NCBI GenBank assembly: GCA_002423385.1
Contig: DIVV01000217.1
Span: forward strand, 8,781 to 72,780
From: a bacterium UBP16_UBA6123
GTDB lineage: Bacteria; Muiribacteriota; UBA9980
DNA: 64,000 nucleotides
Reading direction: 5' to 3'
The translations under genes were made by a program, and so were the position numbers. The notes under the pieces were generated by a model, which saw only the letters and a list, made by a program, of their open reading frames with translations, did not search any database and was not told the DNA's origin. Positions 1-33,000 of the stretch are shown here, in pieces. Position 1 is the stretch's first letter; each line of letters opens with the position of its first letter.

Positions 1-1
1 G

Positions 2-9000: not shown

Positions 9001-12000
9001 CGCTAAAAAAGTCAACTCGAAGATCGCCGAAACTTTCTATGAAGATAACTTCGATACGGCTATAAGCTCCGACTGGACCAACGGCGATACCGGCGTGTTC
9101 AAGTGGCAGGACAGCGGTTATGATAAAACAAACGACGGCCATGTGCATATTGAAGCGACGGCTAACGTCAATAATAAAAAACTTACTTCTAAAATATTTG
9201 ATCTGTCAAAAACTTACGAAGGCTCGGCTGAATGTCTCATTTACCTTGATACTAATGATAGCGCTGATTCGATTAAATTCGCAGTTGAATATAAAAAAGG
9301 CGCAACGTGGACCGAAGATCAGAGTGAAACCATTAAAACCAATTCAGTCAACTGGAAAAAATTTGAGCTGCCTTTTAAAGACGCGCTCGGCAAATCTCAA
9401 GTCAGAGTGGTGTTTACGGCATATACGAATAACCAGCCGCTCAAGATAGGTATAGATAACTTTAAAATGACGCGCGGCAGCCAGTATATATTCAAGCAGG
9501 GCGATACCACTTCAAGTTTTTACAGGCGTGAAATTAAATTTTCTAAATATTCCAAAGGTAAAAAAATCACTATTTCAACGCAGGGCACGGCTAACTACTC
9601 GATATACGTAAATGGCGGTGAAATTTTAAATGGCAGCGATATAGCCACCGACGAAGTTAAGACATTTTCCAACCCGTACGACTTTAATTTCGGCGACGAC
9701 GATACATGCTGCGTAGTTACCTTTAAACTCACTAACACTAAATTCGATGAATTCAATTCGCCGGCTATTTCTTATAAAGTAACAGTTGATGAAAAGATGA
9801 AAGGCATAGTCGATACAACGCCGCCGCGGCCGATGAACCTTGTCGCTTACGCCAAAAGCGGTAAAAATATCGATAAAAAAGGCAATCCGTCGCCGTTCCA
9901 GTATTCAAAAGATTTTATAGTAACTACCGATTCATCCGATATAAGCGGTATTAGAAGATGCTACTATAAGGTGTGGTCCTATACCAATGCGGCCCTCGGC
10001 GGTAAAAACGCCCCGGCGAGCGATGTCGATTATACCGGTTACATAGATTTCCCGGCTACCGAAAAAACCGATAACACTATTAACATAGATGTAACCGTTG
10101 CTTTAGCGACTGAAGATTCATCGGGCCGCGAAACATGCAGCGTGTGGTTCGTCGATAATAACGATATCAACGGTTTTGATTACAGGGAAGAAGTATTGCT
10201 TCGCGTTGACCGCCAGAAACCGCCTAAACCGGTTCTGCTTAAATTTAAAGCGGATAACGGAGTCGAATATGTCCATACGACTATATGGGACCAGAAGAAA
10301 CCTACTTTCAGATGGGAAAAATCAGTTGATCCTAAATTTAACAATACGCATTTGAGCTCTGCGACTTTGATGGATGAGTCCGGCACCGGCCATTACCAGT
10401 TGCAATTAACTACTACGGACGATTTTGCTAAATCCGATCTCGAAGTTTTCATTAAAAATGATGAAACTATATTTACACAAGAAGTTAATTTCGTGCCTAA
10501 AGATAATCTGCCGATGGGTGATTATAAATGGCGCGTAAGGGCTATTGACTCTCTTACCGATACTACCGAGCTGAATTTTTCAGCCTGGTCGGATACAGGC
10601 GAGCTCCATTTAGACTTTCACCCGCCTGATTCTTATGTATTGATACCGCCGCCGGACGGCCCGTATTATCGCGAAACCGATAACGTCGAATTTCTGCCAA
10701 GCGTATATTTTTCGATAGTGCAGACCGATCATGCAAATAAATGGCATAAAATACTCAGTAAAATGGCGACCGGCAATACTACTACACCTGTTGAATTAAC
10801 CGACCTTACTCTCGACGACGATAAGCCGCGCGTCGATAGAGACGGTAATTACATCGTATTTGAAAGAAAAAATGCCGATAAATCCGAAATTTGCTATATG
10901 GAGTCGAGCGGTGAAAACGCGTTGATTCTTTCAAGACAAACTTATGATACTAAAAATTTATCGTCCGGCGATAAGATCAAGTATAGCGGTACCGTTAAGG
11001 CTACCGCGACTGGCGATTGTTATCAAAACTATATATTCTCGACTAAAGAAATCGCTCTCACAAGTGATCAGACCGGATTGTATATTGAATATGATTACTA
11101 CGCAGACACGACCGGCGCCGGTATATGCGGTATCAACATAATGTATGAAACAACCTCCGTCAGCTATGGCGTTAACGGCAAGTGGGAATTAAGGCTCGAT
11201 CCGGCGTGGCCCGCTACGGTTAAACCTTCCGCCGACCTCGGAACGGCACATCATAATAAATGGCAGCACCGTAAGATCGAAATACCATCAACTTTAATGA
11301 TAAACGAAGTCGCTATTAAAACCTGGGAAGTTTCATTCGAAAATGATACGCCGGGTAAAAGCATAAACGCTTATTATGATAATATCACAATAACCAATTC
11401 TGACGGCCGTATTCAAAACGCTATTTATTCACGCGGCCCGCTTGAATTTACTCAGGCTTCCGATTATTACAACAATTATGAAAATTACTCAGTTTCGATT
11501 GAAAAAGAGAGAATAACCAACGAAGAAATCAACATTAAAGTCACTAAAGATAAGTCGCCTGATATTTCTTCGAACGGCCGTAAAGTTATATTTTCATCGT
11601 TTGACGGCTACAGGCGTTATCGTCTTAAAATAAGCGAGGCGCCGTCCGGCTATACGGTTAAAGCTAATATACTCGATGATACGGCAAAAGGTATTTTTGA
11701 TTCCTCGATGGATAATGGCGATGACTTTAGAATTATATGGCAAAACTACGACATTGCCACTTCTAAAACGGTTGAAGTCGATCTTGACAGATATCTTGAA
11801 AAATTCACCGCCGATGAAATAATCGTATGGTTTAAAATACAGGAAAGCGCTGGCTGGAGCGGTGGGCTTTCAAATTATTACGTTGAATACGGCCGTAATA
11901 AAGTGGGTCTTCCGCCGACGGATTACACTAAAGTTTATAAATATTATGACGATTTCAACGAATATTTTGACACTTCTAAGTGGAAAGCGATAGGTAAAGC

Positions 12001-15000
12001 CGTGTGGCAGAACGATGGAACCGTTAAGCTGCCTGACGCCGAAAATTCAGCTTCAGGTAATGGTTTCTATTCAGTCGATCAGTTCGAACCTGGAATCGGC
12101 GTGCTTATGTATATGAAAACCGAATTCGTAACAAGTGAAATACGCCTTGGTTTTTCAAACTCAGATTTCAGTAATGCTTTTGTGTTCCGTTCAGATGATC
12201 TTGATCAATATCTGCAGGCGTATTATGAAGTATCGGCCAAGAAAGCCGTATGGGCCAATGACGACAGAGTTACGCCTTCGGTTTATCAGTGGATAACTCA
12301 CCCTACTGGCTTAGAATCGATTGAAAACAACCTGGTTAATTATCCGTCTAGTGCCGCGTTTGCCGATGATAGCGGAAAATTTAATACTTACGCGCTTTCA
12401 TGGATGAAACGCTCGGGCGATTCGGTTAATAAATTAAGGTGGTATTATAACACCGATACATTCCCCGATCCGTCAGATTCAACTCCGACTTATGATCTCG
12501 ACAGTGGAAGTTTGCCGTTGTATTTCATGAATAAAAACTCCACTTCTTCCGTTTATATAGATAAGGTCATAGTAAGACTGCTTCTTGAAGAAGAACCGAC
12601 TGTCGAAGTCGATACTAACGAAAGCACTACGACCGGCCGTTACGAGCTTGCAGTCGTTAATATCGAACGCGGCAACAACGATAACGGCATGAAACTTATA
12701 ACTAAAAACTCCGATTATGACCGTATTAACCCGAGAATCAGCCCCGACGGATCTAAAATTGTATATATGGCCGATGTCGGCGACGATCAGTATGATGTTT
12801 ATCTCATCGATACTAACGGCGCTAATAATACGAAATTGACGACTTATTCCGCTAATGATAAAGATCCGACTTTCTCGCCTGACGGTAAAAAAATAATATA
12901 TCTTCAGGACACCGATGCGGTTACCATAGGCGCCGGTACTCTTGACGGAACGGTAAGTATCATTATGACCATGAATTTAGATGGCACCGAACAGCAGTGG
13001 ATCGAAACGCTTACTCCGTCCGATAAGTGGAATTTCAGGTCGCCTGTTTACGGCCCCGTCGGCGATCGTATTTATTACGCGCGCGTTTCCGATTCGGATA
13101 ATTATGAGGTTTACTGCCTGTGGGCGCGCGATTCATATCTTGGTAAAACTATTGAAAATTCCGAAGACCTTGTCGAAGATCAAATATCGGAACTCGACAC
13201 CGCTCAGGACGCCGATTATATTTCAATCGAAGGACTTAAGAAAATAGGCTGGTATTATTCGAAGCCTTCAATCAAGGTTTATGCCCGCGACGCGGAAGGC
13301 CATGGCGCGCGAATATATCATAACTGGACCGGCGATTCGCTTGAAAATAATCTGTACAGCGCTTCCACTACCGGCGTCGGCCTGATATCATACGATGTGC
13401 CTTATTATATGCCGGACGACCATGAATATCGCGAGCAGCTCAGTTTCTTAGCGACCGATGTTAACGTTCATCCGTCTGATGAATACTTTGTCGATAAACA
13501 GGATTCAGGTAACGTCGAACTTGCGCATAAACTTATACCGCTTATAGATGACGCCGCGCCCGCCAGCGACATACGCATTCATATCGTTGACCGTGACGGC
13601 GCCACGGTAGGCGTCGATAAGGACAACCGGCTTGAATATACTTCTGAAACGACGCTTGGCAGCAAAAATGGTTACGGCGGCGATAACGTTTTAAAGACGG
13701 CCGAAGTAAGTTTATTAGTAGCCGTCGATAGTAAATATTCCGACTGGGTTTATATTTCTAATTATGAAACCGCTCCCGTCGGATTCCATCCCGAAGGCGC
13801 CGCGCCGCTTGGTTATGAAACCGAGCCTGTCAGCCTGGATGTAAGCGAAACTTCGAATATATGGCTCAGATCTGAAAAGGCCGCCGAGTATTTTTACCCG
13901 GAATTAAAATGGACTTTGAAAGATACCGCGGAATCAGGACTAAAAAAAATATACACATGGTACGGTTCCGAAGGCCGCGTCATTAAAATGGTATCTGAAG
14001 AAATATACCTGGTCACCGATATACCGCTGCTTTATAAAGAAAGAGTTTATGTGACTACTAATTCTAATTTTGCGCTTGGAACCATGGGCAGTAATATTAG
14101 AGTTGAAAATGACAGTATCTACATTGAAAAAGCCAACTCCGGTACTTATGAGACGCCGATAATGAATCTGGGCTCGCATATTACCGATTTAACCAAATTA
14201 TACTGGATAAGCGAAACCGGCTCGGATACTACCGCCGTTGCGACTAAACCGGTTAAATCGATTCAATTGAGGCGCGGCACCACTAAAAATCCGTCGGCTT
14301 CCTCCTGGACCGATTGGATAACCGTCGGCGACACGATGCTCGAAGACGCCACTTCTGAAATCGACATATCCATGGGCGTTACAGGCGTATTTTTTGAACT
14401 CGAAGATAAAACCCAGGGCTGGCCCGTGGGTTCTGACGAGGTCGTTTACGTTCAGGCCCGTTTCGGTCTCGCGGGATATCTCAGAATTACCGAAATAGGT
14501 TTTGCTTACGACCGATGCGCTGATGGATTGCGCGCTTATGACGACGATCCTAACGTGGATACCGCTCCAGTGTGGTTCAGCGTGTATCGAACCATGCCGC
14601 GTATGACTTTCGGTTATAACACTAAATCGTCTTTTGATAATCCAATGAATATAAGATATTATTGGAAAAATTCAAGAGGAAAGTCGGGCGGCTCCGTTGA
14701 CGAACCGCTTACGCTCGATTACAACTCGGTTTTAACGCCTGGAAGTATTTCAGTTCAATTGATCGGATCTACTTATCAAGACTATGCGGGCACTAAATAT
14801 AACCCGTCAGGCACTATAAGTGTCGCGCTCGATACAGCTAAAACTCAGGAAATAGTTCTTGATACCGGTTTTGTTGACGGTTCCTTCGAAATTACCGTAT
14901 GGGCGATAGATCTTGCGGCGAATGAAACGACAAAAGAAACTTACGTATTTTACGTGAATAATTCACCGATAAGCGAGCCTGAACTTGATATAAGCCGTTC

Positions 15001-18000
15001 GACGTCGAATGAAAATAAATATATGACCAATATACCGTTTCCTGTATATAACAATGACCTGTACAGCAATATACAATTTGTAGATGCGACCATGGAGGTT
15101 ACCGGTTGCGTTTACCGTCAGATATCCAACCGGCCAGATTTTAAAGATGTTTTGTGGTTGAAAATGAAAACTTCCGAGTCGAATCCTATCAGTATATGGG
15201 AATTTTCGACAAATACGGTCGGCCTGTTCAATTACGATATCACTTATGATGGTTACTCTACTCCTTACCTTAACAGTGTAGGTAATAAAGAACCTGATAT
15301 TTACGATGGTAAAAAAGTGGTTTATGCCCGTTATAAAAACGGCGCCGGCTTGATTTTAGGCCCTGTTACAGATGAAATAATTCTCGACAGGACCATGCCG
15401 GCAACTTCACTGCAGGGCGTTACAATTAACGATGATGAAAAACTTGGCGTCAACGGCGGTGAAATCGTTCTTCAACTTACCGCGCTCCATGATTTCGAAG
15501 ACGGTACTTCTTCGGTTACCTCGAGAATGGGAACCGTCGAAACCGCCGTAATAGTGAGTGAGAAATATAACGCAACTTACGTTAATGAATTTAATTATCC
15601 TGACGCGAGTTTAAGGTTGAGATACCACTCCCAGGACACCGGTGAAATAGAATCCGGTTCATATACATCACCGGTATATCTTATTGGAACTCACATCAAG
15701 CAGTCGCCGCTCGGACGTATCAGGTGGACACAGGTATCTGACACCGATAATTCGGTTGAAATATGGCTGCGCGCTATTCCTGATAAAGGCGACGGCACTC
15801 CAGACTTTGCTAATGCCGGCGACTGGAATAATGGAGGCGCCGCTCACAGCAAGGTTGGAATCGGTACTACCGAAGTAGTTGCATGGCAGGATATGGTTAT
15901 CGAAGGTAATACCGTGTCGGCGTTTGATTATCAGTTTATTCAATTCAGAATCAAGTTAACGACAAAACTGCCGACTGGCATATATCCTAAAATAGACCAG
16001 ATCGAGTTTGAATTTAAGCGTAAATCTGAAATGACTTCTTTTGATCCGATAAACGATTCTGAAGGCAGCTCGGGTTATTTTGAAAATCCAGTAGTGGTGA
16101 ATATAGCTAAAAATAACGAACTCGATAAAATAATGTACCGCTGGTCTTATTCCGCATCTCCAGGCGCGGTCGGCGCATTTACGGAGCTCATTCCGACGGC
16201 TCTGCTTAACGTTGAAAAGCCGAAGTACATACTTGAAGTTAATCAGGACCGGCCTTCGTTCCTGCAATGGTTCAGTGTTTCTAATACGGGTGATACTGAA
16301 GCGGTTACCCATTCAAAACTGTTTAAATTTTCGCTTAAAGGCACTAAAGATTCATGGGTTAAAATACTTGATAACGCCGCGCCTTTCGATGATGGTATCA
16401 TAATGGGCCCGAACGTTAAGCTGAGACTTAATCCTGCCGTTCCCGGTGATCCTTCGCTGCCGGGTAAAATTAAAATATCCACTAACCCCGAAATGACGCC
16501 TTTATTAGCAGAACTCGAATATACGGTGAGCCCGTCGCCTGTCGAGGAACCTATTACGCTTAAAGCCCCCGATGGCCTTTCACCCGCGCTCGAAGGGCGA
16601 GTTACCGTTTACGCGCAGTTTGAAAGTTCGTTCGGTGAGACTACCGAGATTGTATCGCATTCGATTATGCTCGATCTTAACAGCCCTAATGCCATTCATA
16701 ATCCTAACGCCAATCTTTACAAAATTGGTGATTCCGAATATGCCGATTATTCGAAAGGCAAGTTTACCAATGTTACTTATGCCGATATTAACGGCGATTC
16801 ATTTGAAGTGAAGCTCGGTTATAAAAACGATCTGGTGCTTGATAAATTTGATGCATTAGCGGCTAACTGGGATACGCCTCAGGGCGTTGCGGCCGATTCA
16901 GACTCGGTTTTCGTCGCCGATAGCGTTAAGCAGAAACTTTATAAATTAAGCACGCAAACTCTTGCCGTTCAATCGTCGAAAACGGGGTTAGGCTCTCCGT
17001 GCGGCGTTGAAGTTGACGGCGATCATGTTTATGTTTCTGATAAGATCAGGCATATCGTTTATAAATACCGTAAATCCGATTTTACGAAAGTCGGTTCTTT
17101 CGGCGTTGAATATAATGCGGGTTCTCTGGAAAATATGCTCAAGGCTCCCGAAGATATAGCTATAGATCCGTCCCGTAACTACCTTTATATAAACGATGCC
17201 GGCAATAAACGCATAGTTAAAGTCAGTCTCGAAGGCTTAAGTTACGTAGCCGATAAACCTTATACATTTTTTGAAAAAATGGATTTAGTATCGGGTATAG
17301 CAGCGGATGACGAAGCTATTATTCTGTCTAACCCGGGCGGACATATAATTGGTAAATACGATTCTAATTTCGCTTCCGGCACCGCTCAGAGTCTGTTCGG
17401 TGAATATAATTCCGCGGATGACGACGACGCCCATCTTAACACGCCGCTGCAGTTAGGTCAGGACGCCGGCTATATTTACGCTGCCGACAGCATGAACAAC
17501 AGAATAGTCAAAATGTCTTATAATCTTAAGTATATATCCAGTTACGGCTCCGCTTCAATACCTTATCTGAACAATCCGGTTGCCGTTTCTGGATGTAACG
17601 ATAGAATTTTCGTGTCGGATTTGAACAATAAAAGATTGGTTTCTTTAATTAAAGTGCTCGATGAATATGAATTGAAAGCTACGCTTGGCGCTTCTGATGG
17701 AAGTTTTTCGCCTCCCGGCCAGAATAAGCAGGACGTTCCTTTCAGGCTTTATGAACCGGCTATGATTACCTCCGATACGGTTTACAGTTATGTGGCCGAT
17801 ACTAAAAATCATAGAATATTGAAGGTTAATAATGAAACAATGCTTGTAGAGCGTCAATATGGCGTTACTGGTGTTTTGGGCGCGGACACGGCTCATTTGA
17901 GTAATCCGAATGCCGCATGTCCTGATTTTACTGATAAAACCGCCGGTTATATTTTCGTTTCAGATACAGGTAATAAGAGAGTTATTAAACTTAAAAATAA

Positions 18001-21000
18001 TTTCGGCAGTTTCGCCTATCTGACTGATTCTTTATCAACGGGCACGCCGGTTTCAGTAGATTTTGCGGGCGGGCTGTGCGTCGATAACAGCGCGGTTCCC
18101 GCTGAGCTTTATGTGGCCAATAAAACGAATATAATTGTATTCAATGCGTCAACGATGTTAAAAATCGATGAAATAACCGCTCTGGATGGAGCTTTTGTTA
18201 ATGTTACCGACGTCAAGTATGCCGGCGGTTATTTTTACGTTGTTGATAACGGCCGTCATCAGATTTATAAAGTGCAGAAATTGCGGCCCGTGTCGGCTGA
18301 AATCGTTAAGTATAATTCATTGACGACCGCTTCGGCATTTGCTAAGGGGTTGAATTCTCCTTATTCAGTCGCAATTTCTCCGGATTATAAAGACGTTTTT
18401 ATTACCGATAGGCAAAATTATAGAGTGCTTCACCTCGACTCGTCGTTTAATTATAAATCGAATCTGGGTTATAACGGTATCGAGGGAATCGGAACGGTAA
18501 GCGTTACCCTTAATAAGCCGATGGGCGTTACCTGTATAAAAACGCCTGCCAGCAAGTATATACTTGTTACCGATACTCTAAATAACAGGCTCATTAAAGT
18601 TAAATACGATACTTATTCATATTCGCCTTACGGCGAGTTTGCCTCGCGCGTAATAAGCCTTGGTAATTACGTCGTGCCTCTTGCAGATGGAGTCGGGGGC
18701 GCCGGCATTAAAGTTGAAACTAAATATTTGCATTACGATCCCGTTTCCACTCAGGGCGTTGAATTATGGGTAAGAACCGCTCCGGACCGCGGTGATGGAA
18801 ATTATGACGGACGTTATTGGTCGAAGTGGGAAAAATTCCTGCTGCCTAATATTACCGACGTAAGCGTCAATAATTCTTTTATTAACAGGCGCGCGTTGAG
18901 CGATACGCAATTCGTTCAGTATAAATTGATTTTATCTACTCAGGACCTCCGCCAGACGCCGAGTGTCCGCACTACAATGTTTACCTATAAGCGCGGCTGC
19001 GATGGCGACCTTGTGACACCGAGCCCGCACACGGGGTATTATCTCACTCCGCTTTATGGTACCCTGGACCATTTCAATATAGTTTATGAAGATGAAAATA
19101 TATTGAGCATCAACTATGATCAGGGCAACGTTCATTATAAGTGGAATGCCGGCGCTGAACAGGTTATTAACGAATTAGTTTACGCGGTAGCCGAAGGCGT
19201 TAACACGCTTACATATTACGCTAAAGATATCGTGGGCAAAGTGTCGCCGACTGCGAGTATAACTTATTCTATCGATACCGTACCGCCGGTTAACCCCGCG
19301 GTACGCGTTACTGAAACCGCGCCGATCAGTACCAACAGTGTTAATCTCGATTTGACCGGTGTTATGGATACTAATGCCACTCCTCAACTTCAGATGATAG
19401 TATCTGAATTTGCCGATTTTAATAACACTACATGGGAAAGCTATTTAACAAGCAAGAACTATATTTTCACCGGCACTCTCGAAACCGGTATTAAGCGCAT
19501 TTACGCGCAATTTAAAGATAATGCCGGCCAGAAAACCCTTAAAGTATGGGACACCGTGCGACAGAAGAAAGCTAGCGAAGCTCCAGTCGCCCGTATTAAA
19601 TCTTACGAGCATGGCGGCAAGTATGATTTTGAACGTGGTTCTCTCAACGGAACGCAGGTTGACCGTTACGGTCATGTGAGTCTGGCTAATGATACTTTCG
19701 GTTTTGTGTCTTCGCTCAGCGATCCGAATTTGAGTAAACCTATGGGAGTCGCGGCTTATTATAATAAAACCTTGAAATTGTTCGAAATATTCGTAGTTAA
19801 CTCGCAAAATCATACGATTAATAAGTTTGTTTCGAGCGATGACACTCCTAATATAATAGAATTTGTAGCATCGTATGGTGAAACCGGTGTCGCCGGCTCC
19901 GATGAAGTTCATTTTAACACACCGACCGGCGTGGCTTATGACGGCACATACGTTTACGTCGCCGATTCGCTTAATCACAGAATCGTTAAGCTCTATAATC
20001 AGTCGGTGCCGCTTAATAAAATGAGTTATATGTGCCAGTTCGGCAATCCCGCATCGCCTGGTACGGGAACTTCAAATCTTAATACGCCGTTCGATGTCGC
20101 CTGGGCCAATGGTTATCTGTATATTTCCGATTCCGGAAATAAGCGTATCGTAAAATTAATATCTAACAACATGAAATACATTGCGGCTTTGAATACCGAA
20201 GTTAATCTGCGCGGCCTTACTTCTGACGGTTTTTACTTATACTACATAGCAGACAAGGATGTAACACGCGTTAAAATTGATTTTGGCGGCTCTCCTCTTA
20301 AATATAGCGTGGTTAACGCAGGTGCGCTGGTTGATCCTTATTTCGTTCAATCTGATGGGTTGAACCTTTATATAGGCGATTCCGGGGCTAAAAAAGTAAA
20401 AATGACCGCGCTCGATTTTAAAATTAAGAGCGAATACGACCAGCTTGTGAGTATTGGCGGAATAGCTTCAGTTCAGGGTTTATCCACGGTTTATTTATTT
20501 ATAGCTGAAAGTTCGACTAATAAGTTATACAAGTTGAATTCCGTTGACACATTCTACAAGAGTTCAGGCATTTATATTTCGGAACCGTTAGATATCGGTT
20601 CTCATGTCACTAAAATAGATAAGGTTTATTATACGGTTGAAGGCAGTTCTAAAACCAGCGCCAAGTTCGAAATGAGGGTTTATCCCGACAAAATAGATTC
20701 ATTGGGAGAACATAGCGCTGATTTAAGCTATTACGAAGGCGAAAACGGATGGACGGTTCTCGATGAAACCGGAAGCGAATTCCCGCCGTCCGGTTTCCCG
20801 ACGCAGCCTAACTCGATGACTAATTTTGCGGGCCAGTACCGTTATTTTGTACAGTACAGGGCTACTTTAAGTACTATAGATAAACAGGTCACTCCTATAT
20901 TGAAGAATTTCAGGGTGGAATTTTTGAAACGCGGCGACGGCCTTTCGTCTAATTTACTTTCGCTTCCCGGTATTTCAATCTATGCTGATAACTCTAACGA

Positions 21001-24000
21001 CTGGCCTGGCTGGTATGTAACTCCGCCGTCTTTTTCAGTGTCCGCGGCTGAATGGGACCTGTTTAAAATTAAATTGACTAATAGCGCCAATATGGCCGGT
21101 ACCGAATACAGCTTTACCGCCGGCGCTAAAATTCCTGTAATCACTACGGTTGCGCCGACGACGGCCGGACTCGGAAATTTTATATTCACCGAAGGCACTA
21201 ACAGCGTTACCACCTGGTCAAAAGATATTTCCGGTAATGCTTCTTTTGGCGAAACCATTGAGATTTATTATGATAAAACGCCTCCCGGCAAGCCTGAAAT
21301 CATACTTGTCAGCACGGCAATAGATGATTCTGAAAATCAGACTTATTACGTTAAAACTTCAAAAATAAGTTTTGATATAAAAGTCGAATCGTCAGACGGC
21401 CGTCCAAGGCGCACAGTATTTTCCAAAAATGTATCCGAGCTTACCGTGCCGCCCTCAGATTCGACAAAATGGTTTGAAATGACGGATAAAACCGTTGCGG
21501 GTCACCTCATACATAAAGTGATTGACTATAATCTGAGTGAAGGGTTGAACATAATATATACCAAGTGCAGCGATCAGGCTGGCAATATTTCTAACGTCAG
21601 CTATATTAAAGTTCACCTGGATACCACTAAGCCGAAATCTTATAACGACAGGGTAATTCACGCTTCTAAAGAAGCGTTCGAGTTGAGCGGCCGTGAGTTG
21701 GATGGCGTATTGATAATAAACGACGGGCTTATGATGTCAAAATGGCTTTACAATAAACATTTTGATTTCTCGCCAGCCCTGCCGAATTTCGTTTCTTCCG
21801 ACAGTAAATACGTTTATACCTGCGATACTTCGATTACCGGCCCCCGAATAGGCGTTATGGGCAAATTTTTAGACGGCATCAAGGCCACTAAAAATAAATT
21901 CATATTGGGTACTACCGAGATTCTTCTGAAAGCCCCGGTGGCGGTAATTCCTTTTAATGATAAGCTATTCGTGCTCGATAAGGATTTACATATTTTATTC
22001 AGGGTAGCCTTAGATAAACACACTAACGATCCCGCTAAAATAATTGGAAATACAATGGAAGTAGTATTCGGAACCGTTAATACGCCTTCTACATCGCCGC
22101 GAGGCCTGAATAGTCCTCAGGGATTGTCTATTTTCGGTACCGAAGAGATATATGTCGCCGATACTCTTAATAACAGGGTATTTAAAACCAATGTAAATTT
22201 GACCAGTATAACGGCCCAGTACGGATCGGTTTTTGCCAGCTCCATTAAATCGCCTGTTTCGGTAACCGTTGATCAGTCAAATGTATTTTTAGCCGAAAAA
22301 GGTTTAAGCGGTCAGAACCGCGTTATACAGTTGGATAAAAACTTAAACGAAATACAGTCGTTTGTCGATTCGGCTTCCGGCGTTTTAATGGACGATATAA
22401 AAGCGATAACCTCCGACGGCAGCTATCTTTACGTGTCTCATAAAAATGGCGCCGAGCACAGAATCTCGAAATTTATAATCAATCCGGTTATAAGTTATTT
22501 AACCTATGTTAAAGAATTTACGATAGGCGGCGTGGCAAGCACTTTCAATGACGTACGGGGAGTTTTTGCCGACGGCGAAGATATTTATCTGGCTGATACG
22601 GGCAATAAGCGAATAATTAAAACTTCGTCTATTTCGTGGAAATATAAATCACAATTCGGCGTTACGGGCGTTCCGGGAAATGACGCGTTTCACCTCAACA
22701 GGCCCACCGCGCTCTGCTCGGACGCTTCACATCTATATGCGCTTAATTACCATCCGACTTATAATGGCATAGTTTATAAGATCAGAAGCAGTTTTATCCG
22801 TGATACTGAAAACAGATATATATTCCTTGAAACACCCACCGGCGTAGCCGCTACCAAGGATTTCGTATATCTTGTCAACCCCGGCGCCGGCGATGATAAA
22901 AAAGTATTGCTGATATGGGGAAAAGATATGCAGACAAGATATCCTTATGATAACTCGGTCGTATCGCCTCCTTTGATTTATCCTATCGATATATGTTCGT
23001 ATTTCGACGGATCGAAGTATTTCGTATATATCGCCGATTATCAGTCGCAAAAGGTATATAAATACGAAGAAAAATTAGGACAGTTATTGAGAGTCGGCGA
23101 ATCGGCGACGGGTAAACTTATAAGGCCTATAGCTTTGAGCGTCGATGCAAGCGGCGTGTACGTTCTTCAGGGAGACAGTACTGTAGTTAAATTAACTCCT
23201 GATATGCAAAATGTCGCTACAAGCTACGGCCGCGAAATCAGATTCGGTATCACCGGCGTTTCCGGCGTGGACGATTTCCATTTAGATCCGTCTCCTAAGT
23301 TAGATCTTACAGGTGTTACGGTATATTCAAAAATAGTGTCTACCGGCAACCGTGTTTATGTGACGGATACCAATAATCACAGGGTAATGAAATTTGATAC
23401 TTTCCTTAATTATAAGGGAGAATTTGGTGAAAGAGGAGTTCCGGGCACCGGCGATAATAATTTTAATAAGCCTTCCGGTATTACGATTTTCGCCGGCGAT
23501 ATATACGTTAACGACAGCGGTAATCAGCGTTTGGTTAAAACCGGAAACGATGCGGGCGTTTATACCTCCGCATGGGTTAATATAGGATCGCACGTTAATA
23601 AGATGAATAAAATGAATTACAGCGGAAATATTCCGTCCGGTTCAGGGCTTAATATAGAAGTGCGATTCGCTTATCAAAAAGAAGGCGTTCCATTCATGCC
23701 GGATGTGACTGAATGGGAAGCGCTTTCCCAGATGGCCGATGCTCCGGTGCAGACGCCGGTTAATCATCCTTCGCCGGAAATTAACCAGTATTTGCAATAT
23801 AGAGTTTCATTCTTGACTGATTCATCGGCGAGCGTTCCGCGGCTCAATAATATCGAGTTTTCTTATGTGAAAACGGCCGATGGCGAACAGGACCCCGATC
23901 TCACGGTGGCTTCCGGCCTGGGTTATTTCAAGAAATTCCCGGAAATATCTCTTGCCATGAATGAAAAAGGCGGTCTGTTCTACCAATGGTACAGGTACAA

Positions 24001-27000
24001 TGAAGTTACCAATTCTGAAGATGCGGTAGATCCTACCGTGCCGAATACTTATAATTTATTCGGAATTAACAGTGTTTTACCGATACCGCTTGTTGGCGGC
24101 GAGCGTAAAGACGGGCTTTACATAATGAGATATTACTCCCGTGATTATGTGGGTAATACTGAGTCAACCAATTCTTATCAATATCGTATAGATACTACCC
24201 CGCCGAAGATATTAGAAGGCAAGGCCGTCGCTAACGGTATAGCCGGTTACTCGTTTAATAAAAAAGAAGGCGCCGTAGATATTTATGTGAGACTCGATAA
24301 TAATACCGATAAACTTCCCGATTTCAAGAATGGCGTAATTACCGGTAAAGTCCGTATCATATCAAATTCGACGTCTTATGATTCAAATGCCGATTTTACG
24401 GCAGGCAGTAATTTTATTTTAACTTACTATGAAGGCGCTAACGTTCCTGTCGGACAGGTATGGTTCACCGCCCGCTGGAAGATCAATCCTAACGACTACG
24501 TTCAGGAAGGCTCCGACTTTCAGGTTTACGTTTCGGTTAAAGATCCCGCCGGTAACGAAGATGAAAACTTCGCTTATGGCTACGCTAACTCGAAACCAGC
24601 CCTTACGCTTCAAATTTATGGCGGCGCGCCTAATACGCGCAACCAGCAGATCGTTCATGTAAGTCGTCAGGATTTCGCTAAAGGCACGCTTAAAGAGGTC
24701 AGCGTAGAGCGCAGTGGAACGAAAGGTCTTGTAAGGCTTCGTACAAACGCCGATTGGGGCGGTCTTGCTCAGGGCACCGGAACGCCTGCGTTCAGCAGGC
24801 CTTACGCTATTGCATCTGACGGCAATTACGTTTATCTGTCGGATATTAATACAAACTATCTTTACAGGCTTACCTCGAGCATGACGGTTTTATCGACTCT
24901 TACAAGTGTTGTATCCGGCGCGCAGGGTATCGCCTGTGATGGTCAATTTGTTTATGTAGCCGATACCGGTAATAACAGGATATTAAAATTGGATTCAGCA
25001 TTATCCAAAATTTATGCGGAATGTTTATACACCGGCGTGCCCGATGGTATCGACGGTCCTGTTTCTATCGCGGTTGACAGCCAGAGGGTTTATTTTACCG
25101 ATATGAAAAAACGTATCGTAGTATTGAATAAATCACTCGGTTATGTGACGGAATCTCCCGTTATAATCGGAGGGCATACGCTTTCCGATAGGCTTAGAAT
25201 TTGCACCGACGGCAGTAATGTTTACTTACTGGATCGCGCGGCTTCGAAGATATTGCATTTATCTTCCCAGCTTACTTATAAGTCTTCTTACGGCAGCGTC
25301 GGAACCGGTCAGGACCAGTTTACGGACGCGCGTGATATATCGACCGACAGCAGTTACTTTTATGTTACTGATAATGGTAATAACCGTGTTATAAGATTGA
25401 ATATAGAAGAAGACGGCAGTCTTTCCTTTAAAGAACAATTTATGGGTACGGGCAAAGTAGATCCAGGAAAATTAATTACTACGGTTTTATCGGAAATTAA
25501 CGGTGTCGCTACCGATGGATATTATACATATGTGTGCGAAACCGGTAAAAACCGGATAATAATGACGGGCGACGTAGCTAAAAAAACCGAATGGAACGAG
25601 CTCGCGCAGTTCGGCGTTACTAATGTTTCAGGTAATGACAATACCCATTTGAAGACTCCTAACGGTATTTCATTTTCAGGCATTTATTTTTATGTAGCCG
25701 ATACCGGCAACGACCGTGTTGTAATGCTCGATCAGGAATTAGGTTACTACAAGAGTTCGCCGGCTGCTTTATACAGCTCGCCTAAAGATTTATATTACAA
25801 CGAACAGGGTCTTTACGTGCTCGATGCCAACGGAATAAGCGTTTCAACCGATGAAGTCCAGACAAAAGCGATTACACGCGCATTGGCGGGGCTTAAAGGC
25901 ATTTGCGGTTACGACAGTATTAATTTGCTTGTTACTTCCGGTAATGATATCATATGGCTTAACGGCATTACTCTCGCTAATATTAAAAATTCTATGAGTT
26001 ATTCAGGCATACCGGCTCCCGCGGCGCTTAACAATCCGACCGGTTTAGTGACTAACGGCGTTGATGTTTACGTTTGTGATACCGGTAATAACCGTATAGT
26101 CAAATTTAAAATCGATAAGTCGATACCGGGTGATCATAAGTTGATTTATCAGGGCCATTATTCACAGGATGTTTCGGGGCCTTTATACATTTCGCTCAGT
26201 CCTGATTTTATATACTTTACCAATGGCGGTTCGTTTAAAAATATAGTTAAACTCGATTTAAACCTTAATTTTATCGCTAAATATCCGGGAACCGGAACAA
26301 TGAACACTCCTACAGGCATAACGGCTTTCGGCCAGTATTGTCTGGTATCGGAAAATCTCGGACATAGAGTGGTAAAAAGCGGTATATCAAAATTCGCGGG
26401 CGAAGTGGCCGTGGAAAATTCTTCGGATGATTCGAACGTCGGTCATTCAAACCACTCTCTTGCCTTAATTACAAGCGAATCAGACGCGACGAGCCTTCCT
26501 TTAGTTATGTATGAAAAGAACGGCGTCATTTACCATAGACTTTCAAAAGACGAGGACGGCAATGTGTTTGATGGGCAGGTGGCCGATTTTAACGGCACGC
26601 AGTTCGCCCTGGCTTCTAAAGCTAATAACGCTTACGTAGCTTATGTGGATGGCGGTCAGATAAAATTTTCGACTACGGCCAACGGTAAAACTTTCACATC
26701 GCCGAATTTGGTGAGCGGAGCCTATTTGGGCTGTTCCAATCCATCTATAACAGTAGATAAAGATAACTTTATATACATAGCCTGGGAAAGCGGCGGTAAA
26801 ATTAATTATAACCGTTCGACGCTCGCCGTCGTTAATACCAATAACGCTTTAAATCCGTCTTTATTTGCGGGAACCAATATAAAACAGTTTGAATCATCCG
26901 CGGACGGTATCTTCAGTCAGGTGTCGCTTACCGCCTCGCGTGAAACCAGCGCGATTCACGCCGTCTGGATCGTCACCAAGGACGGATTCAGCACGGTTAA

Positions 27001-30000
27001 GTACGGCCGCGGCGATACATTTTCTACCATAAAAGACGTTAAAACTTTTGAAAGCGGCGCCAGCGACAGCGTCAGTGGTCCAAAAGTGGCGGCCGGCGCT
27101 GCTAATCAGCTTTATATAGTCTGGACTGGCCTGGATATGCAGACCGATATTAAGTACGTCGCTTCAATTGATGCGGGCGTTAATTTTGAAAACGTTAAAA
27201 CAATTAACACCACTAAAAACGGTTATCAAAAAAATCCTTCGATTACAATCGGTCTTGACGAATTCGGTAAAGACGTCGCTATGGTTGTATGGGAATCGAC
27301 TTCTAACCTGACTTTTTACGATGAAGATATTTATTTTACTAAATCTTCATCAGGCATATTTGAAGCTAATACGAGGATCAATACGAAAGTTCAGAGCCGC
27401 GCACAAACTAAGCCGTCTGTTTATTCGACGCCTGACGGTTTGATCGTTTTTGCTTCCTGGCTCGATTCTTCAAAAAGCGATTCGGACCACGATGTTTATT
27501 GCGCAAGATTTACGGATGTTTCAATTTATCAGTTGAAGGGTGTTTACACGTCTCAGATAATCAATCTTGGAACTCACGTTAAAGATTTCGATAAAATATC
27601 ATGGGTTGACGATTCGCAGTCTAAAAAATCAACTAAAATATATTTGAATACGAGATTGTGCCCTGATGACGGTTATGGCAATCCAGACACCGGTTCCTGG
27701 TCGAAATGGTCTTCGAATTATAAGAATTCCAACGTAGATATTCAGAAGGACGAAGAATACAGCGGAATGTCGCCGAATCTTTTCGAAAACCAGTATATAC
27801 AGTATAAGGCGACTATTACAACCAGAAATAAAACTATTACGCCAAACCTTTATAAGGTTATAGTCAATTTTGTGCGCTCGGGCGATAGTCCTGAAAGTTT
27901 TAAAGCATCGGGCGATATTAAATTTCCTTTAACGCACGGCGGTATTATAAATACTAACTGGTTAAATGATTACAAAGGCCCGATCAACGGCTGGTATATC
28001 AATCCGCCGCGTATGACGATGACGGCCGATAAAGAGGCTATCACTTATTACGACTGGAAAAAACTGCCGGCTTCAGATGTAATCGTTCAAACCGGAGCGC
28101 ATCTGGCTTATGCTCCTTTTGTAATTCCTTATGTTAATCCTACCACTCAATCTACTCCGCCGGTAATAGTTGCCGGTAAGTCGGTCAGACCGGTTAAGGC
28201 TGAAGGTAAACTTACTTTATATGAGTATAGTATCGACTATTACGGCAATGCCGAATATGAAAAAACTAAAGAAGTATATTTGGATACTATTCCGCCTACG
28301 AATCCTGAATTTGGCGTTACTACCAAAGGATATGTCGTTAACTCTAAGAAAGCATCCATTACGATAGATCTTTCAGGCGACACGAGCTTTGGAGAGGATG
28401 ACGCCGGCGGATATGACGTTTTCGATATCGATTCATCTAAAGATAATTCAGTTTTCGCTTTCAGCGGAACTAACGAAGCGTTTTTCGTGGGCACTAACTC
28501 CGTCGGAATAACCAATGCCACCATCGAAATCGGTACCGGTATAAATTCCGGTTTCGTAAGGTTTAAAGGCACATCGACTTCAGGAATAGATAGAATATCC
28601 ATGAGTAAGGTCCTTAATCCTCCGATTAACACGAGTTATTACAAAAATATATTCATAAGGCTTCGCGGCGACAGATCCGATTTAGCGAACCCCTCTTCAT
28701 TGCCGATCGGCGATTATAGAGTGCTCGTTCAATCCGACAGCGGAAGAATTTACAGAACTATTCCGTTCAGAAATTCCGTTCAGCTAAAACCTGTCAATGC
28801 GACTGAGGAAGTCGTAATGATGAAACTTCCAGTTAACGAAAGAATCAGTATGGTATCTATTGAGCTTCAGGATATTACGAGCGAAGTCGGTACGGCGAAT
28901 AAAAATATGGCTGTATGGGTTGACTGGATAGCCTTTACGGCGGCAGCTCTCAACACGCCTTCGCCGACGCTCGATCTTTCGGGAACAAATAAAACATTTA
29001 CGCTTTCCAATATTTCGGATAATACGACGCATGAAATAATACTTGTCAGATACGACGCACGCGGTAATTACGGTATCGGTTCTAAAACGGTCGTAACGCC
29101 CGACAGAACTGAACCGCCGCCGCCGGTAGTAGATCTTTACATGAGCGATGGCGGTCTTAACTCCGGCGATAGCATCGAAGTTGTCTGCCAGTGGAAAGGC
29201 GTTAAAGACGGACATTCGAAATCTTACAGGTATAACGTGGATGTCTCCATTACCGATGCGGCCAATAAAGAGGACTGGAAGCGACTGAGCATAGTTCCTT
29301 ATGAATTCGGCAATAAATGTTCGGTTACCGAAAGCGTCTTGATTAGAAACGAAGCTAAAAATATTTACGGTATGCTGGATACGGTTATCAATAAAATATA
29401 TGACACGGATTACTACGGATTGAAAAAACTTTATATATTTTATCCAGAAACCAGTGCCGATGCTGCTAAATGGACTGATAAATGGAGGTACGTATCCAAG
29501 GGAAGTTATCTGGGTGAATATTTTAAAACGCGCGGTTTTGTTCAAATCAACAGTTATGCGGATCTTGCCGCTACAATGAATGCTTCAGTACTTGCTAATG
29601 ATTGCGTGGATACTATAATAATGCTTCCGTTCGGTACTGTTCCGTTTAATATAGTAGACCCCGCGGTCGGCTATGAAAATACACCGCTTAAAAAATATCT
29701 TAAAAAAGGCGGCACTATAACATGGCTTGGCGATTTCCCGTTAGAATGGACCTATAATAACTTAGCCGATTATAAGTCTAACTCAGATCCGCAGAATGTA
29801 AATATAAATCCTATTTTCAGTAATATATTGAATATGACCTCTCAGCGTGTTCTTTCAGGGCCTACATTCTCGGATTATATGCCGCGTCTCGGAGTTACTC
29901 TTCAGCCTGAAATAACCGATAACGGCGTGCGTATGCTCGATATTCGCGCCGCTTACACTTCGGATGCGCTCAGGGCATATTCATGGCTTGCCACTTACGA

Positions 30001-33000
30001 CGATAATTATCCGACAAAAGGTTTCATAAGGTACCTCACTAAGATAATCGTCGATGGTATAGATAAAGAAGCTCTTAAAAACATATACAATATATCAACA
30101 TTTACTAATATATTGGCTAAAAATGGCGGCGTTGACGATGCCACGGATTATTTCGCTACTATAGCCCGCGGCCCCTGCGGATTTTTCTATAAATTCAGGG
30201 TTACGGCGATAGATTCCGAAGGTAATATTTCCAGTACTGGCGGTATATCACCGGTTAAAAAGGCCCGCGATACGCAGCCGCCGGTCGTCGATTTTGGATA
30301 CGGCTTCGCTTCGGATTATTCGGTAGTAATTACCAAATCGCAGTTAGCAACCGATATATGGGATAAATTCGTTATAACCGACGCCGTGCCGTCATCGGGA
30401 ATTGTAAAAGCTGAATGGTTCTTTGAAATCAGGGACTCCAAACAGACCTGGGATTGGCCGGCTAATAAAGATCATCAAACCATTACATATTTTAATGGTT
30501 CGGAAGCGGTAAGCGTTTCGTGCAATCGTGAAATAGTAACAAAAGCTCCGTGGTATCCGACGCGTAATAAGTTTGTTCGCGCCGGTACATATAGAATTTT
30601 TGTGAGGGCATACGATAAAGACGGAAACTATAATACTAACTATGCATGGCAGACTTATAACGTAGTAGCTTCCGATCCTTATAAGTTAGTTTTTGCCGAT
30701 GAATCGTCGTTAAAATTCGACGCTTTAGGAAGGCTTATCGATTACACGCCGTTGACGCGTGAAACTAACTATAAGGCGCCTTATATGAGAGCCGGCGATA
30801 CTAAAAAACTATATGTAGTATCCGCCGATAAAGATTTCGATATAGTAACTATCGAAGCTGATTCAGGTTTTGTGAGATTCGATACATCTAACGCCGTTAA
30901 AAATGGAAGTGATCCGATGGCGAGCGTCAGGATATATCATGGTCTTGAAAGTAATGGAATGACCACTACCGAAGCGTTTAAACTCAGCGACACTACTAAA
31001 ATGGCTATTTTAGAACCAGATGTTATCGGAGTTAATTCGATGTGGTCGAAGGGTTTTGTAACCATAATGTATTATGAAACCCGTGATATCAATACCGAAG
31101 ACGGTCGCAGCGATATGCAGATAATGATAAGTTCGCCTTCATTCTCGCAGAACGCTATGGCTGATATCGAATTAAGGCCGAATGTATTCCATCACCTTAA
31201 ATTCGATAACGAACCTCCGTTCACCGAATATAAAAAGCCTTATAATTTTAAAGCCGATGAAGGCGTTTTGATAAGTTTCGACAGGCGCGACGAATATGAT
31301 AACTTAATTTATTCGTCTGAAGATACCGAAGCGGTAGCGGTAAGTTTTATAAACGAACACACCTCTACTATTGATGGTAATATCATTAACAGATACAATT
31401 ATCATCATAACAACGGCAGGTTATACTGGAATTCAAAATCAGGTTCTAATTCTACTTTAAAGGCCGTAGATGACGAGGGCTGGTATCCATGGGAAGTCGC
31501 TTCCGCGGAAACCGAACCGGTCGGTATAGCTCTTGGCAGTTCCGGTAATTTTACAGACGGTCACGTATTTAAAATAGAAGACGCTATTTATTCCAGTTCG
31601 AATACTTCGAAATCCACCTACGTAGTTGACGGCACGCAGAGAATTAAACTGATATCGACTCTGGCGAGCCGGCCGGATCGCTATGATAAACATCAATTTA
31701 TAATCAACGGCAAGAAGTCGTCATTATGGTACAACGACACTTTCGCTACAGGTGAAACGCTGCTTACAGCTTATATCTACGCTTTCGATACGACCGAATC
31801 GCGGTTTGAAGTTGAAAAGCCTTTACAGCAGGTTGAAATTGAAGTGCAGCATTCGTCGGCGCCCGGCAGGCTCAAAATTACCGGTATCGGCACTTATAAG
31901 ACGATGGGCGGCACTCTGGTGACCGGCGGCCCGCAGGCGGGTTTATATAATAAATTCCACGTGGACGCTACTGACAGATGGTCGAATCCTATGGTAGAGA
32001 CGGGTTCATTTATGGCAGCGCTTAAGGCCTATCCGAAGGATGCGGAGCTGGTTAACAGGATGACCATATACTATGGAAATAAAAACAAATCAAGTTTTGT
32101 TTTTTATAACCTTGAAGGTAATATGGTCAATTCCATTAGAATAGCTGATGGCGGCGCCGATTTCTACTATCAGGATATGGTGGCTTCGCGCAATCTTACT
32201 GCGGATCGTAAATATAACAAAAATAAATCGACGGTATCGGTAATTGAAATTATCGATACGCGACTTACGGCCGGTTTTGAAAACGATTCGGAAGAAGTTG
32301 AATTGACCGCCGATCGTGGCGATTACGTTGTAGACAGTTATGACGTCAACTGCGATAGGCATAGATTCGGCGGAAAATTACCAGAACTCGAAGAAAGCGC
32401 CTATACTATAGACGATTTAGACGCCGCGCGTTTTTCTCTTGAAGTTAACGATGAAGCGCATAACTCGCTTGAAAGACTCGAAGGCATGATCGCTGAGACT
32501 ATCACCGTAAATCTTTTTGATAGATACGGCAATTTGTGTGATGCTTTTGGCGAAGGCACGAATGGCGTCGGCTTCGTGGAATCCGGTTATCCGACAGTGC
32601 TCATTAAAGACCGTCGGGAAGAAGATGAATACCGTACGCCGCATCCGCCTGATTTTGCGGGCGATGAAGAGATTAGCGCGGATACCATCCCGCTCGGCGA
32701 AGTGCCGTATACTCTCAACGGTATTGGAACTCCAGGTTTTGTAGAAGGCGTTCTGCGTCAGGATCTTTCTATAGAAACAAGCGGCGTTATTTTATTGTTA
32801 AAGTATAAGGCCGAACTGCCCTGCTCGTATAAAACATATAAGCCCGAAGGCACTTTAGAGGTTGCCGTCGGTCTTATAGAGCCCAAATTGTGGGGCGGCG
32901 TTTCGGAAACTTACTTCTATCAGGAGCTGGATAAGAAGATTATACACGATTATATCCGTGAGGCAAACACTGCCATAAGCGAAGGCAAAAATATCAAAGA

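Follow-up and report, generated by a model that had tools for sequence, protein, structure and literature searches.

Accessory beta-sandwich binding modules are a well-known theme in both adhesins and phage tails. Beta-sandwich domains inserted in phage tail proteins are usually receptor-binding decorations, and many Ig-like domains act as spacers that provide length and rigidity. Repeated units of a CBM-like type, each of ~200 aa, CBM35-like, helix-linked and dockerin-like, have been described in giant proteins of the Omnitrophota (bioRxiv 10.1101/2023.11.21.568195). Here, we analyzed a recurring module in a 64,000-nucleotide stretch of bacterial DNA (hereafter, the window), where it occurs six times within one giant open reading frame (ORF) of a Candidatus Wallbacteria bacterium.

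Six copies of one domain in a giant protein

The giant ORF is open from nucleotide (nt) 2 of the window, so the encoded protein comprises at least 11,233 aa, and its start probably lies upstream of the window. Counted from the ATG at nt 374 (nt 374–33703), the protein comprises 11,109 aa, and this numbering is used for all residue positions (Table 1). No TM helix was found in it by TM prediction, and an extracellular location is presumed for this giant surface protein. Orthologous loci were retrieved using an alignment of copy 6 orthologs, which yielded collinear orthologs of the giant protein in five Wallbacteria-type MAGs; a literature search on Wallbacteria revealed no mention of the protein. 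A match to the NCBIfam contractile injection system model CIS12 was rejected, as its score of 39.8 bits is far below the cutoff of 860 and it falls on NHL repeats.

Table 1 Coordinates of the giant ORF, the six module copies and their neighboring domains in the window
Feature	Position (nt)	Strand	Residues (aa)	Remarks
Giant ORF	2..33703	+		All six module copies inside, one reading frame
Module copy 1	14138..14512	+	4589-4713	C-terminal YxQYR..TP motif degenerate; AF2 pLDDT 78
OmpL47-type small beta domain	14762..15004	+	4797-4877	Downstream of copy 1
Module copy 2	15653..16027	+	5094-5218	
NHL repeat block	16877..18601	+	5502-6076	Upstream of copy 3; at least 10 blades
Module copy 3	18632..18997	+	6087-6208	N-terminal GxYxS motif degenerate; directly after double NHL block
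OmpL47-type domain	19031..19324	+	6220-6317	Downstream of copy 3; NCBIfam NF047446 match here
NHL repeat block	19787..20536	+	6472-6721	Upstream of copy 4
Module copy 4	20564..20935	+	6731-6854	Directly after NHL block
OmpL47-type domain	21005..21322	+	6878-6983	Downstream of copy 4; second one at aa 7014-7099
NHL repeat block	22115..23542	+	7248-7723	Upstream of copy 5
Module copy 5	23552..23872	+	7727-7833	Directly after NHL block
OmpL47-type domain	23918..24241	+	7849-7956	Downstream of copy 5
NHL repeat block	24800..26377	+	8143-8668	No module directly after
BNR-like repeat region	26471..27538	+	8700-9055	Upstream of copy 6; propeller-like by eye, one SxDxGxxF motif
Module copy 6	27539..27886	+	9056-9171	After BNR-like repeat region; AF2 pLDDT 87.3
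OmpL47-type domain	27986..28333	+	9205-9320	Downstream of copy 6

The initial annotation had described six recurring copies of the module. All six were confirmed in one reading frame, at coordinates that had been correct to within a few bases, and every peptide quoted for them is present in the protein, in an order that differs from the one in which they had been listed. Each copy was recovered by a hidden Markov model (HMM) built from the other five, with scores of 18.5–75.2 bits (i-E 1e-7 to 2.5e-25), and the best match of these models elsewhere in the protein was at most 1.3 bits; this leave-one-out test rules out chance or low-complexity similarity among the copies. Pairwise identity is 15–34% and extends over the whole domain of ~105–125 aa, rather than being limited to the short GSH motif. 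The six segments are anciently diverged copies of one genuine domain, and no seventh was identified when the entire window was scanned in all six frames.

The same domain defines a wider family of 633 cluster representatives, obtained by an exhaustive HMMER search. These are mostly large, multi-copy "hypothetical" proteins, and the module is often arranged in tandem pairs within large surface proteins of uncultured bacteria, with one representative originating from Patescibacteria. An HMM constructed from 43 unrelated family members, and containing no window sequences, found exactly the six copies in the giant protein (23.5–61.5 bits, i-E 3e-9 to 5e-21); for copies 1 and 3 the match is partial, with copy 1 aligning at HMM positions 1–72 only. 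The family consensus reads sGtYtS.viDlG..(~10)..W....P.GT.i.v.vRsg....pD.sWs.Ws...(variable loops)...rYvQYR..L.T.d...TP.L.dvti.Y., to which copy 6 is the nearest of the six. Both signature motifs, N-terminal GxYxS..D/N.G and C-terminal YxQY[RK]..L.T....TP, are present in four of the six copies. The earlier description of a conserved motif at the start of each copy applies to all except copy 3, and since copy 1 lacks the C-terminal motif, the statement that most copies end with it corresponds to five of six.

Domains flanking the module

Repeats of the NHL family (PF01436) were detected in all three thirds of the giant protein (E 1e-19 to 1e-31), and the limits of the NHL blocks were mapped with an iterated HMM. 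Copies 3, 4 and 5 begin only 4–11 residues past the last detected NHL blade. The initial annotation, which had placed a module after each NHL propeller, is borne out for these three copies but not in general: copies 1 and 2 are preceded by non-propeller Ig-like segments, and no module directly follows two of the protein's five NHL blocks (aa 48–318 and 8143–8668). Copy 6 had been placed behind a BNR propeller, and it does adjoin a repeat region; however, no BNR family was found in this block at Pfam E ≤ 0.01, a PDB sequence search with it gave nothing usable, and the SxDxGxxF motif occurs there once. Its repeat pattern of ~55 aa makes a propeller plausible.

On the downstream side, an OmpL47-type domain lies within 84 aa of five of the six copies, and this domain, rather than the upstream propeller, is the steadier partner of the module. 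The NF047446 match behind copy 3 covers aa 6253–6299 (43 bits; cutoff, 40), and an HMM seeded on such OmpL47-type domains detected the paralogous domains behind copies 1, 4, 5 and 6. A PDB sequence search with the post-module domain gave nothing usable.

The tight junction at copies 3, 4 and 5, where a linker is essentially absent, and likewise at copy 6, would be expected if the module were a structural cap or connector, packed rigidly on the preceding propeller face so as to close or stabilize the propeller or set its orientation toward the next Ig-like domain, with no ligand of its own; the initial annotation had suggested either a capping or a ligand-presenting module. The recurrence of this adjacency in other family members is consistent with such a role (NHL-to-module in P0033, P0166 and P0077, LVIVD-to-module in P0085 and PSII_BNR-to-module in P0074), as is the observation that residues invariant across the family occupy mostly core or structural positions. 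We nevertheless consider this explanation unlikely, given the copies that follow no propeller and the NHL blocks that carry no module. Furthermore, Big_5 plus GH16/LamG-like units that recur with a period of ~406 aa in P0021 and P0026 each end in the module. The best 150 representatives contain 505 module instances, of which only 2 lie directly after an NHL repeat, whereas 198 have another module within the next 20 aa; this NHL count rests on a self-built HMM, so other propeller types are undercounted. In the family at large, propellers make up a minority of the contexts, and tandem module pairs dominate.

Phage tail homologs and predicted fold

The domain is also present in a minor tail protein of Bacillus phage BSTP12/BSP7, where it covers aa 553–646 in BSTP12, and in a 1228-aa tail-region protein of Alicyclobacillus phage KKP_3916 (33.8 and 44.4 bits with an HMM lacking window sequences), both from phages that infect Firmicutes. 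Homology in these proteins extends over the full domain, and both signature motifs are part of it. A PHROG profile is reached by two of the six window copies, with copy 6 matching phrog_20852 (unknown function) at E 3.1e-6 over residues 1–111; within the family, 29 of 52 members match phrog_20852 and 24 of 52 match phrog_3475, which is annotated as "minor tail protein". The relationship of the module to these phage tail proteins is one of true sequence homology. It reflects a shared domain and does not make the giant protein a phage protein: in phages the domain occurs once, either inserted into a tail protein or as a C-terminal domain, whereas the giant cellular protein of the window carries it in multiple copies. 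Unlike copies 3, 4 and 5, moreover, the phage homologs sit in tail proteins with no detected propeller, and the homology favors a binding role over that of a propeller-specific cap. A scan of viral contigs with a tight sub-alignment restricted to typical modules returned no relatives. In single-module tblastn searches against GenBank phages, no match was obtained for copy 6, a typical member or the KKP_3916 domain, and only one Actinobacteria-like family member reached phage proteins.

Structural modeling predicts the module to be an autonomous, all-beta jelly-roll (beta-sandwich) domain of ~100–125 residues. This prediction bears on a second explanation, likewise improbable in our view, according to which the module is an inert spacer or stalk that confers only length and rigidity on a giant, fiber-like surface protein. 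Its multi-copy, often tandem occurrence in very long proteins, its mostly structural conserved positions and its location among other beta-sandwich spacer-type domains would all accord with a stalk. Conversely, the module loops, of which 40–60 and 76–85 are invariant, are strongly conserved among orthologs, copy 6 (61–86% identical in orthologs) is more conserved than its neighbors, phage tail proteins have recruited the domain, and a jelly-roll topology is seen more typically in lectins and CBMs than in stalk Ig domains.

The module had initially been left unassigned to any named domain, and the profile searches agree. Pfam gave no match on the six copies at E ≤ 10, and no consistent Pfam or NCBIfam family emerged over the 52 family members. 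The Pfam model for F5/8 type C (discoidin)/CBM32 matched neither the six copies (E ≤ 10) nor the 52 members (E ≤ 1), and no match to Big_2 or other bacterial Ig-like Pfam families was found in either set. A Pfam match to Ig_Rha78A_N (aa 1613–1662) was rejected as the identity of the module, since it marks a different FN3-like repeat with a Y.WRV motif. A Foldseek search against the PDB gave no significant match; PDB searches with two full-length members, directed at what precedes their modules, returned nothing for P0001 and, for P0004, only a distant FG-GAP/integrin propeller far from the modules. A word-indexed homology search, too insensitive for this family, retrieved nothing with the six-copy alignment and two short JGI hypotheticals with the 52-sequence alignment. 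The module family is genuine and widespread, and neither Pfam nor NCBIfam has a curated model for it. That the module is merely a divergent member of a named family (F5/8 type C/CBM32 or another CBM), and hence a simple annotation gap, is highly improbable. Compared with the galactose-binding-domain-like jelly rolls (discoidin/F5/8 type C, CBM32, the DDR1 DS-like domain, the Eph receptor ligand-binding domain and APC10/Doc1), it shows 4–19% identity, structural scores at the fold level only and no Pfam model match, and the GxYxS...R...YxQYRxxLxT.D...TPxL signature is specific to the module family.

Proposed role and comparison with known systems

As the family also occurs in other large surface proteins and in phage tails, it most likely represents an ordinary module for binding or adhesion that is as yet unnamed. 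We see an approximately even chance that the six predicted jelly-roll modules serve, within a giant adhesin, as non-catalytic recognition or adhesion modules that work in the manner of a CBM or of a receptor-binding decoration on phages; for these modules we infer that they bind a ligand, that the ligand is a glycan and that they act in adhesion. The conserved strands would form the scaffold of the module, with specificity residing in the long variable loops that separate the central Arg strand from the YxQYR strand. In the giant protein, the module joins the C-terminus of NHL, and probably of other, propellers with hardly any linker, and an OmpL47-type Ig-like spacer comes after it. We propose that such a propeller–module–spacer series would string binding surfaces along a very long adhesin.

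A broader and rather speculative extension is that the module represents a new family that binds carbohydrates or surfaces (a candidate new CBM or adhesin family) common to the giant adhesins of Wallbacteria and Patescibacteria and to the receptor-binding tail apparatus of phages. The same module might then attach to the envelopes of other cells, and where it is joined to a propeller with no linker, the two would make up a composite binding site. Wallbacteria and Patescibacteria are possibly epibiotic or predatory, and if binding proves true, the module would provide a handle on the attachment targets of Wallbacteria and CPR cells.

The outcome is a clean and testable definition of the domain through its boundaries and signature motifs, together with a seed alignment of 52 sequences and a confident model. 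Naming the module would reduce the dark matter in giant-protein annotation, which includes hundreds of very large "hypothetical" surface proteins, and would mark regions of phage tail proteins as candidates for receptor binding. By itself, the module reveals no new mechanism; it is an uncurated addition to a known kind of domain.

Two described systems invite comparison. In the DUF4815 baseplate protein of Staphylococcus phage 812 (1,152 aa, PDB 9euf chain 0, PMC13433997), the match to the module is a C-terminal beta-sandwich, with a sequence E of 0.5 that is not significant alone. The repeated units of the giant Omnitrophota proteins, set beside the module by description, differ from it in phylum, size and architecture. 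Nevertheless, both are unannotated beta-barrel or beta-sandwich repeats in giant proteins of uncultured bacteria, each recognized only via structure prediction and each read as an attachment or carbohydrate-binding element.

The module-bearing giant protein and its gene

All six module segments lie, in the ORF listing, within a single giant reading frame (see the table). This frame has no stop upstream as far as nt 2, so that the encoded protein is 11,233 aa or longer and probably begins outside the window, the ATG at nt 374 being probably not its real start. Segments of transmembrane-strength hydrophobicity were absent from the giant protein, and no signal or sorting signal was recognizable at either visible end. 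The rest of the window carries ordinary chromosomal genes of a diderm anaerobe, including UvrC, a sigma-54 activator, PTA, an acetate-kinase-like gene, MacB/HlyD/OEP efflux components, an S1 protein and an oligopeptide SBP. Additionally, a short ORF just 3' of the giant gene shows a weak match to Wzy_C (O-antigen ligase), and a PMT-family (dolichyl-phosphate-mannose-type) glycosyltransferase is encoded farther away; both may bear on the glycosylation of surface structures.

The initial annotation had described a module recurring six times, and every peptide that it quoted was found. The copies could be aligned along their full length using MAFFT with pairwise identities of 15–34%, and their likeness is thus not confined to the GSH motif. 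Circularity was avoided in two ways: each leave-one-out HMM recovered the omitted copy at 18.5–75.2 bits while giving at most 1.3 bits elsewhere in the giant protein, and an HMM built only from 43 family members outside the window picked out exactly the same six copies at 23.5–61.5 bits. No seventh copy emerged when all 64 kb were scanned in six frames. The C-terminal YxQYR...TP motif has been lost in copy 1, and the N-terminal GxYxS motif in copy 3.

Features of the giant protein and of neighboring genes; residues are numbered from the ATG at nt 374 unless stated otherwise
Feature	Window (nt)	Residues (aa)	Remarks
Giant reading frame	374–33703		11,109 aa; window 2–373 also open
Module copies 1–6		4589–4713, 5094–5218, 6087–6208, 6731–6854, 7727–7833, 9056–9171	
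NHL blocks		48–318, 5502–6076, 6472–6721, 7248–7723, 8143–8668	
OmpL47-type domains	14762–15004, 19031–19324, 21005–21322, 21413–21670, 23918–24241, 27986–28333	also 800–1131	
Block preceding copy 6	26471–27538		
Copy 6 loop CPDDGYGNPDTGSWSKWS	27659–27712	41–58 of copy 6	within loop 40–60
Copy 6 loop GMSPNLFENQ	27764–27793	76–85 of copy 6	
Pair of ~165-aa domains	1325–2596	318–484, 583–741	
FN3-like repeats	4463–5773	1364–1800	match Pfam Ig_Rha78A_N
PA14 domain	6272–6538	1967–2055	
Weakly MAM-like repeats	7775–9526	2468–3051	three or four
CIS12 match	16865–17170	5498–5599	rejected
Wzy_C ORF	33835–34503 (+)		
PMT-family glycosyltransferase	59345–60934 (-)		

Domain context of the module

The initial annotation placed a module after each NHL propeller block. 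Copies 3, 4 and 5 do begin 4–11 residues past the last detected blade, but copies 1 and 2 are preceded by Ig-like segments, and two NHL blocks lack an adjoining downstream module. Copy 6, read as following a BNR propeller, is indeed preceded by about 355 aa of propeller-looking repeats, although this block contains a single BNR-type motif (SxDxGxxF) and has no sequence match in Pfam or the PDB. Its ~55-aa repeats end in hydrophobic-W motifs (IHAVWI, LYIVWTG, AMVVWES, VFASWLD), and it may represent an uncatalogued propeller type.

Within the giant protein, the pairing of the module with an OmpL47-type small beta domain (NF047446, matched at 43 bits, cutoff 40; motif GWY...Y.a.D..GN.e....v..D..PP) is tighter and more regular than that with propellers. 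Such a domain lies 12–84 residues downstream of copies 1, 3, 4, 5 and 6, accounting for five of the nine present. Among 505 modules in the best 150 representatives of the wider family, only two directly follow NHL repeats and five are followed by an OmpL47-like domain, while 198 have another module within the next 20 residues. Propeller context is therefore a minority arrangement, and the proposed propeller-plus-module supra-unit is a lineage-specific arrangement rather than a defining property of this promiscuous domain. Independent examples place the module after NHL (P0033, P0166, P0077), LVIVD (P0085) or BNR (P0074) propellers. In two other family members of 3.3–3.5 kaa (P0021 and P0026), the module recurs at a strict period of ~406–410 aa as the final element of units composed of Big_5 and a GH16/3-keto-disaccharide-hydrolase-like (LamG-type) domain, a supra-unit that differs from the propeller-module arrangement of the giant protein.

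Further repeats were observed in the giant protein. Two copies of another unannotated domain (~165 aa, 44% mutual identity) directly follow the N-terminal NHL propeller, and the N-terminal third also contains the FN3-like, PA14 and MAM-like regions. A match of NHL repeats to CIS12, a contractile-injection-system protein in NCBIfam, scored 39.8 bits, far below the cutoff of 860, and most likely reflects mere common repeat similarity.

Distribution in bacteria and phages

Scanning GTDB genomes with copy 6 and close relatives identified five collinear orthologues of the giant gene (51–77% identity across 2,500–3,500 aa), all in Wallbacteria-type MAGs (L002–L006), two of which are named Candidatus Wallbacteria (GWC2_49_35 and P24860_112_MAG_55). 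The window thus derives from a Wallbacteria-type bacterium. When the six-copy profile was run exhaustively with hmmsearch against 1.84 billion cluster representatives, 633 proteins were retrieved with E ≤ 1e-3, of which 108 had E ≤ 1e-10 and 8 had E ≤ 1e-30. The best 150 representatives are mostly proteins of 1–7 kaa and contain from 376 (strict HMM) to 505 (family HMM) module instances. The family consensus reads sGtYtS.viDlG...W....P.GT.i.v.vRsg....pD.sWs.Ws...rYvQYR..L.T.d...TP.L.dvti.Y. Among the domains that accompany the module are NHL, LVIVD and BNR propellers, a T9SS sorting domain, TIG, and Big_5 plus GH16/LamG-like units. Source names, available for a few members, read 'hypothetical protein' (e.g., Patescibacteria HMB66092.1) and, in one case, 'pseudopilin PulG'. 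The latter (P0016; 1,816 aa, JGI) combines a type IV pilin/pseudopilin N-terminal methylation motif with four modules, which suggests display on a pilus-like fiber in some lineages.

PHROGs was the sole library matching the family: phrog_20852 (function not annotated) matches 29 of 52 diverse members and also copy 6 (E 3.1e-6, residues 1–111), and phrog_3475 ('minor tail protein') matches 24 of the 52. Actual phage genes were reached by tblastn with one family member, and the alignments were scored with an HMM containing no window sequence. In Bacillus phage BSTP12, the aligned region spans aa 553–646 of a 1,120-aa 'minor tail protein' (33.8 bits), encoded directly 3' of tape-measure and 'tail component' genes; in Alicyclobacillus phage KKP_3916, it spans aa 1054–1144 of a 1,228-aa protein (44.4 bits). 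Both signature motifs fall inside both alignments. The domain thus occurs both in giant surface proteins of cells and in tail proteins of phages.

Fold, putative function and novelty

The module is an autonomous all-beta domain. AlphaFold2 yielded pLDDT 78 and pTM 0.74 for copy 1 (alignment of the six paralogues only), and pLDDT 87.3 and pTM 0.77 for copy 6 (52-sequence family alignment). In a Foldseek search against the PDB, APC10/Doc1, a galactose-binding-like jelly roll, was the best match, a weak one at E 0.13. Together, the models and this match would place the module in the common galactose-binding-domain-like jelly-roll class, without a close solved relative.

Greater conservation of modules than of propellers holds across five orthologues for copy 6 (61–86% identity, versus 48–75% for the preceding NHL block and 43–83% for the BNR-like block), but not for copy 5, present in one orthologue only (50% versus 57% for its propeller). 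In six orthologues, two copy 6 loops, CPDDGYGNPDTGSWSKWS and GMSPNLFENQ, are almost invariant and vary less than several strands, which points to functional or interface constraint on them. GMSPNLFENQ coincides with the low-pLDDT part of the model. The two loops could form a candidate metal-, ligand- or interface-binding site; speculatively, the Asp/Gly-rich loop resembles Ca2+-binding loops.

We propose, with moderate confidence, that the module is a non-catalytic recognition or adhesion module operating in a CBM-like manner, its binding being putative. This reading draws on the jelly-roll topology common to lectin-type domains, the loops conserved among orthologues, partner domains of kinds usual in adhesins and glycan-active proteins, and the insertion of homologous domains in phage tail proteins, where added beta-sandwich domains are commonly receptor-binding decorations. 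The residues invariant family-wide are mostly core positions, making a purely structural role a serious alternative, with a propeller cap or connector and a spacer each rather unlikely. A divergent CBM32/discoidin domain is improbable.

Even at E ≤ 10, the six copies drew no match in Pfam-A (2025), in agreement with the initial annotation, which had recognized no named domain. Pfam-A likewise gave no consistent family across the 52 members, and in 14 full-length proteins, among them one of 266 aa consisting of two modules and one of 174 aa, the stretches occupied by modules received no Pfam-A domain. NCBIfam 20.0 gave no consistent family either, and the module is thus not named in the libraries searched.

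Jelly-roll modules are well known as accessories of adhesins, glycoside hydrolases and phage tails, and the module is no surprise in principle. CBM-like repeats lacking annotation have also been reported from other giant proteins of uncultured bacteria (bioRxiv 10.1101/2023.11.21.568195). What is new is a specific, clearly bounded sequence family that has signature motifs of its own, numbers several hundred members, occurs in both bacteria and phages and lacks a curated model; it merits a Pfam/DUF entry.
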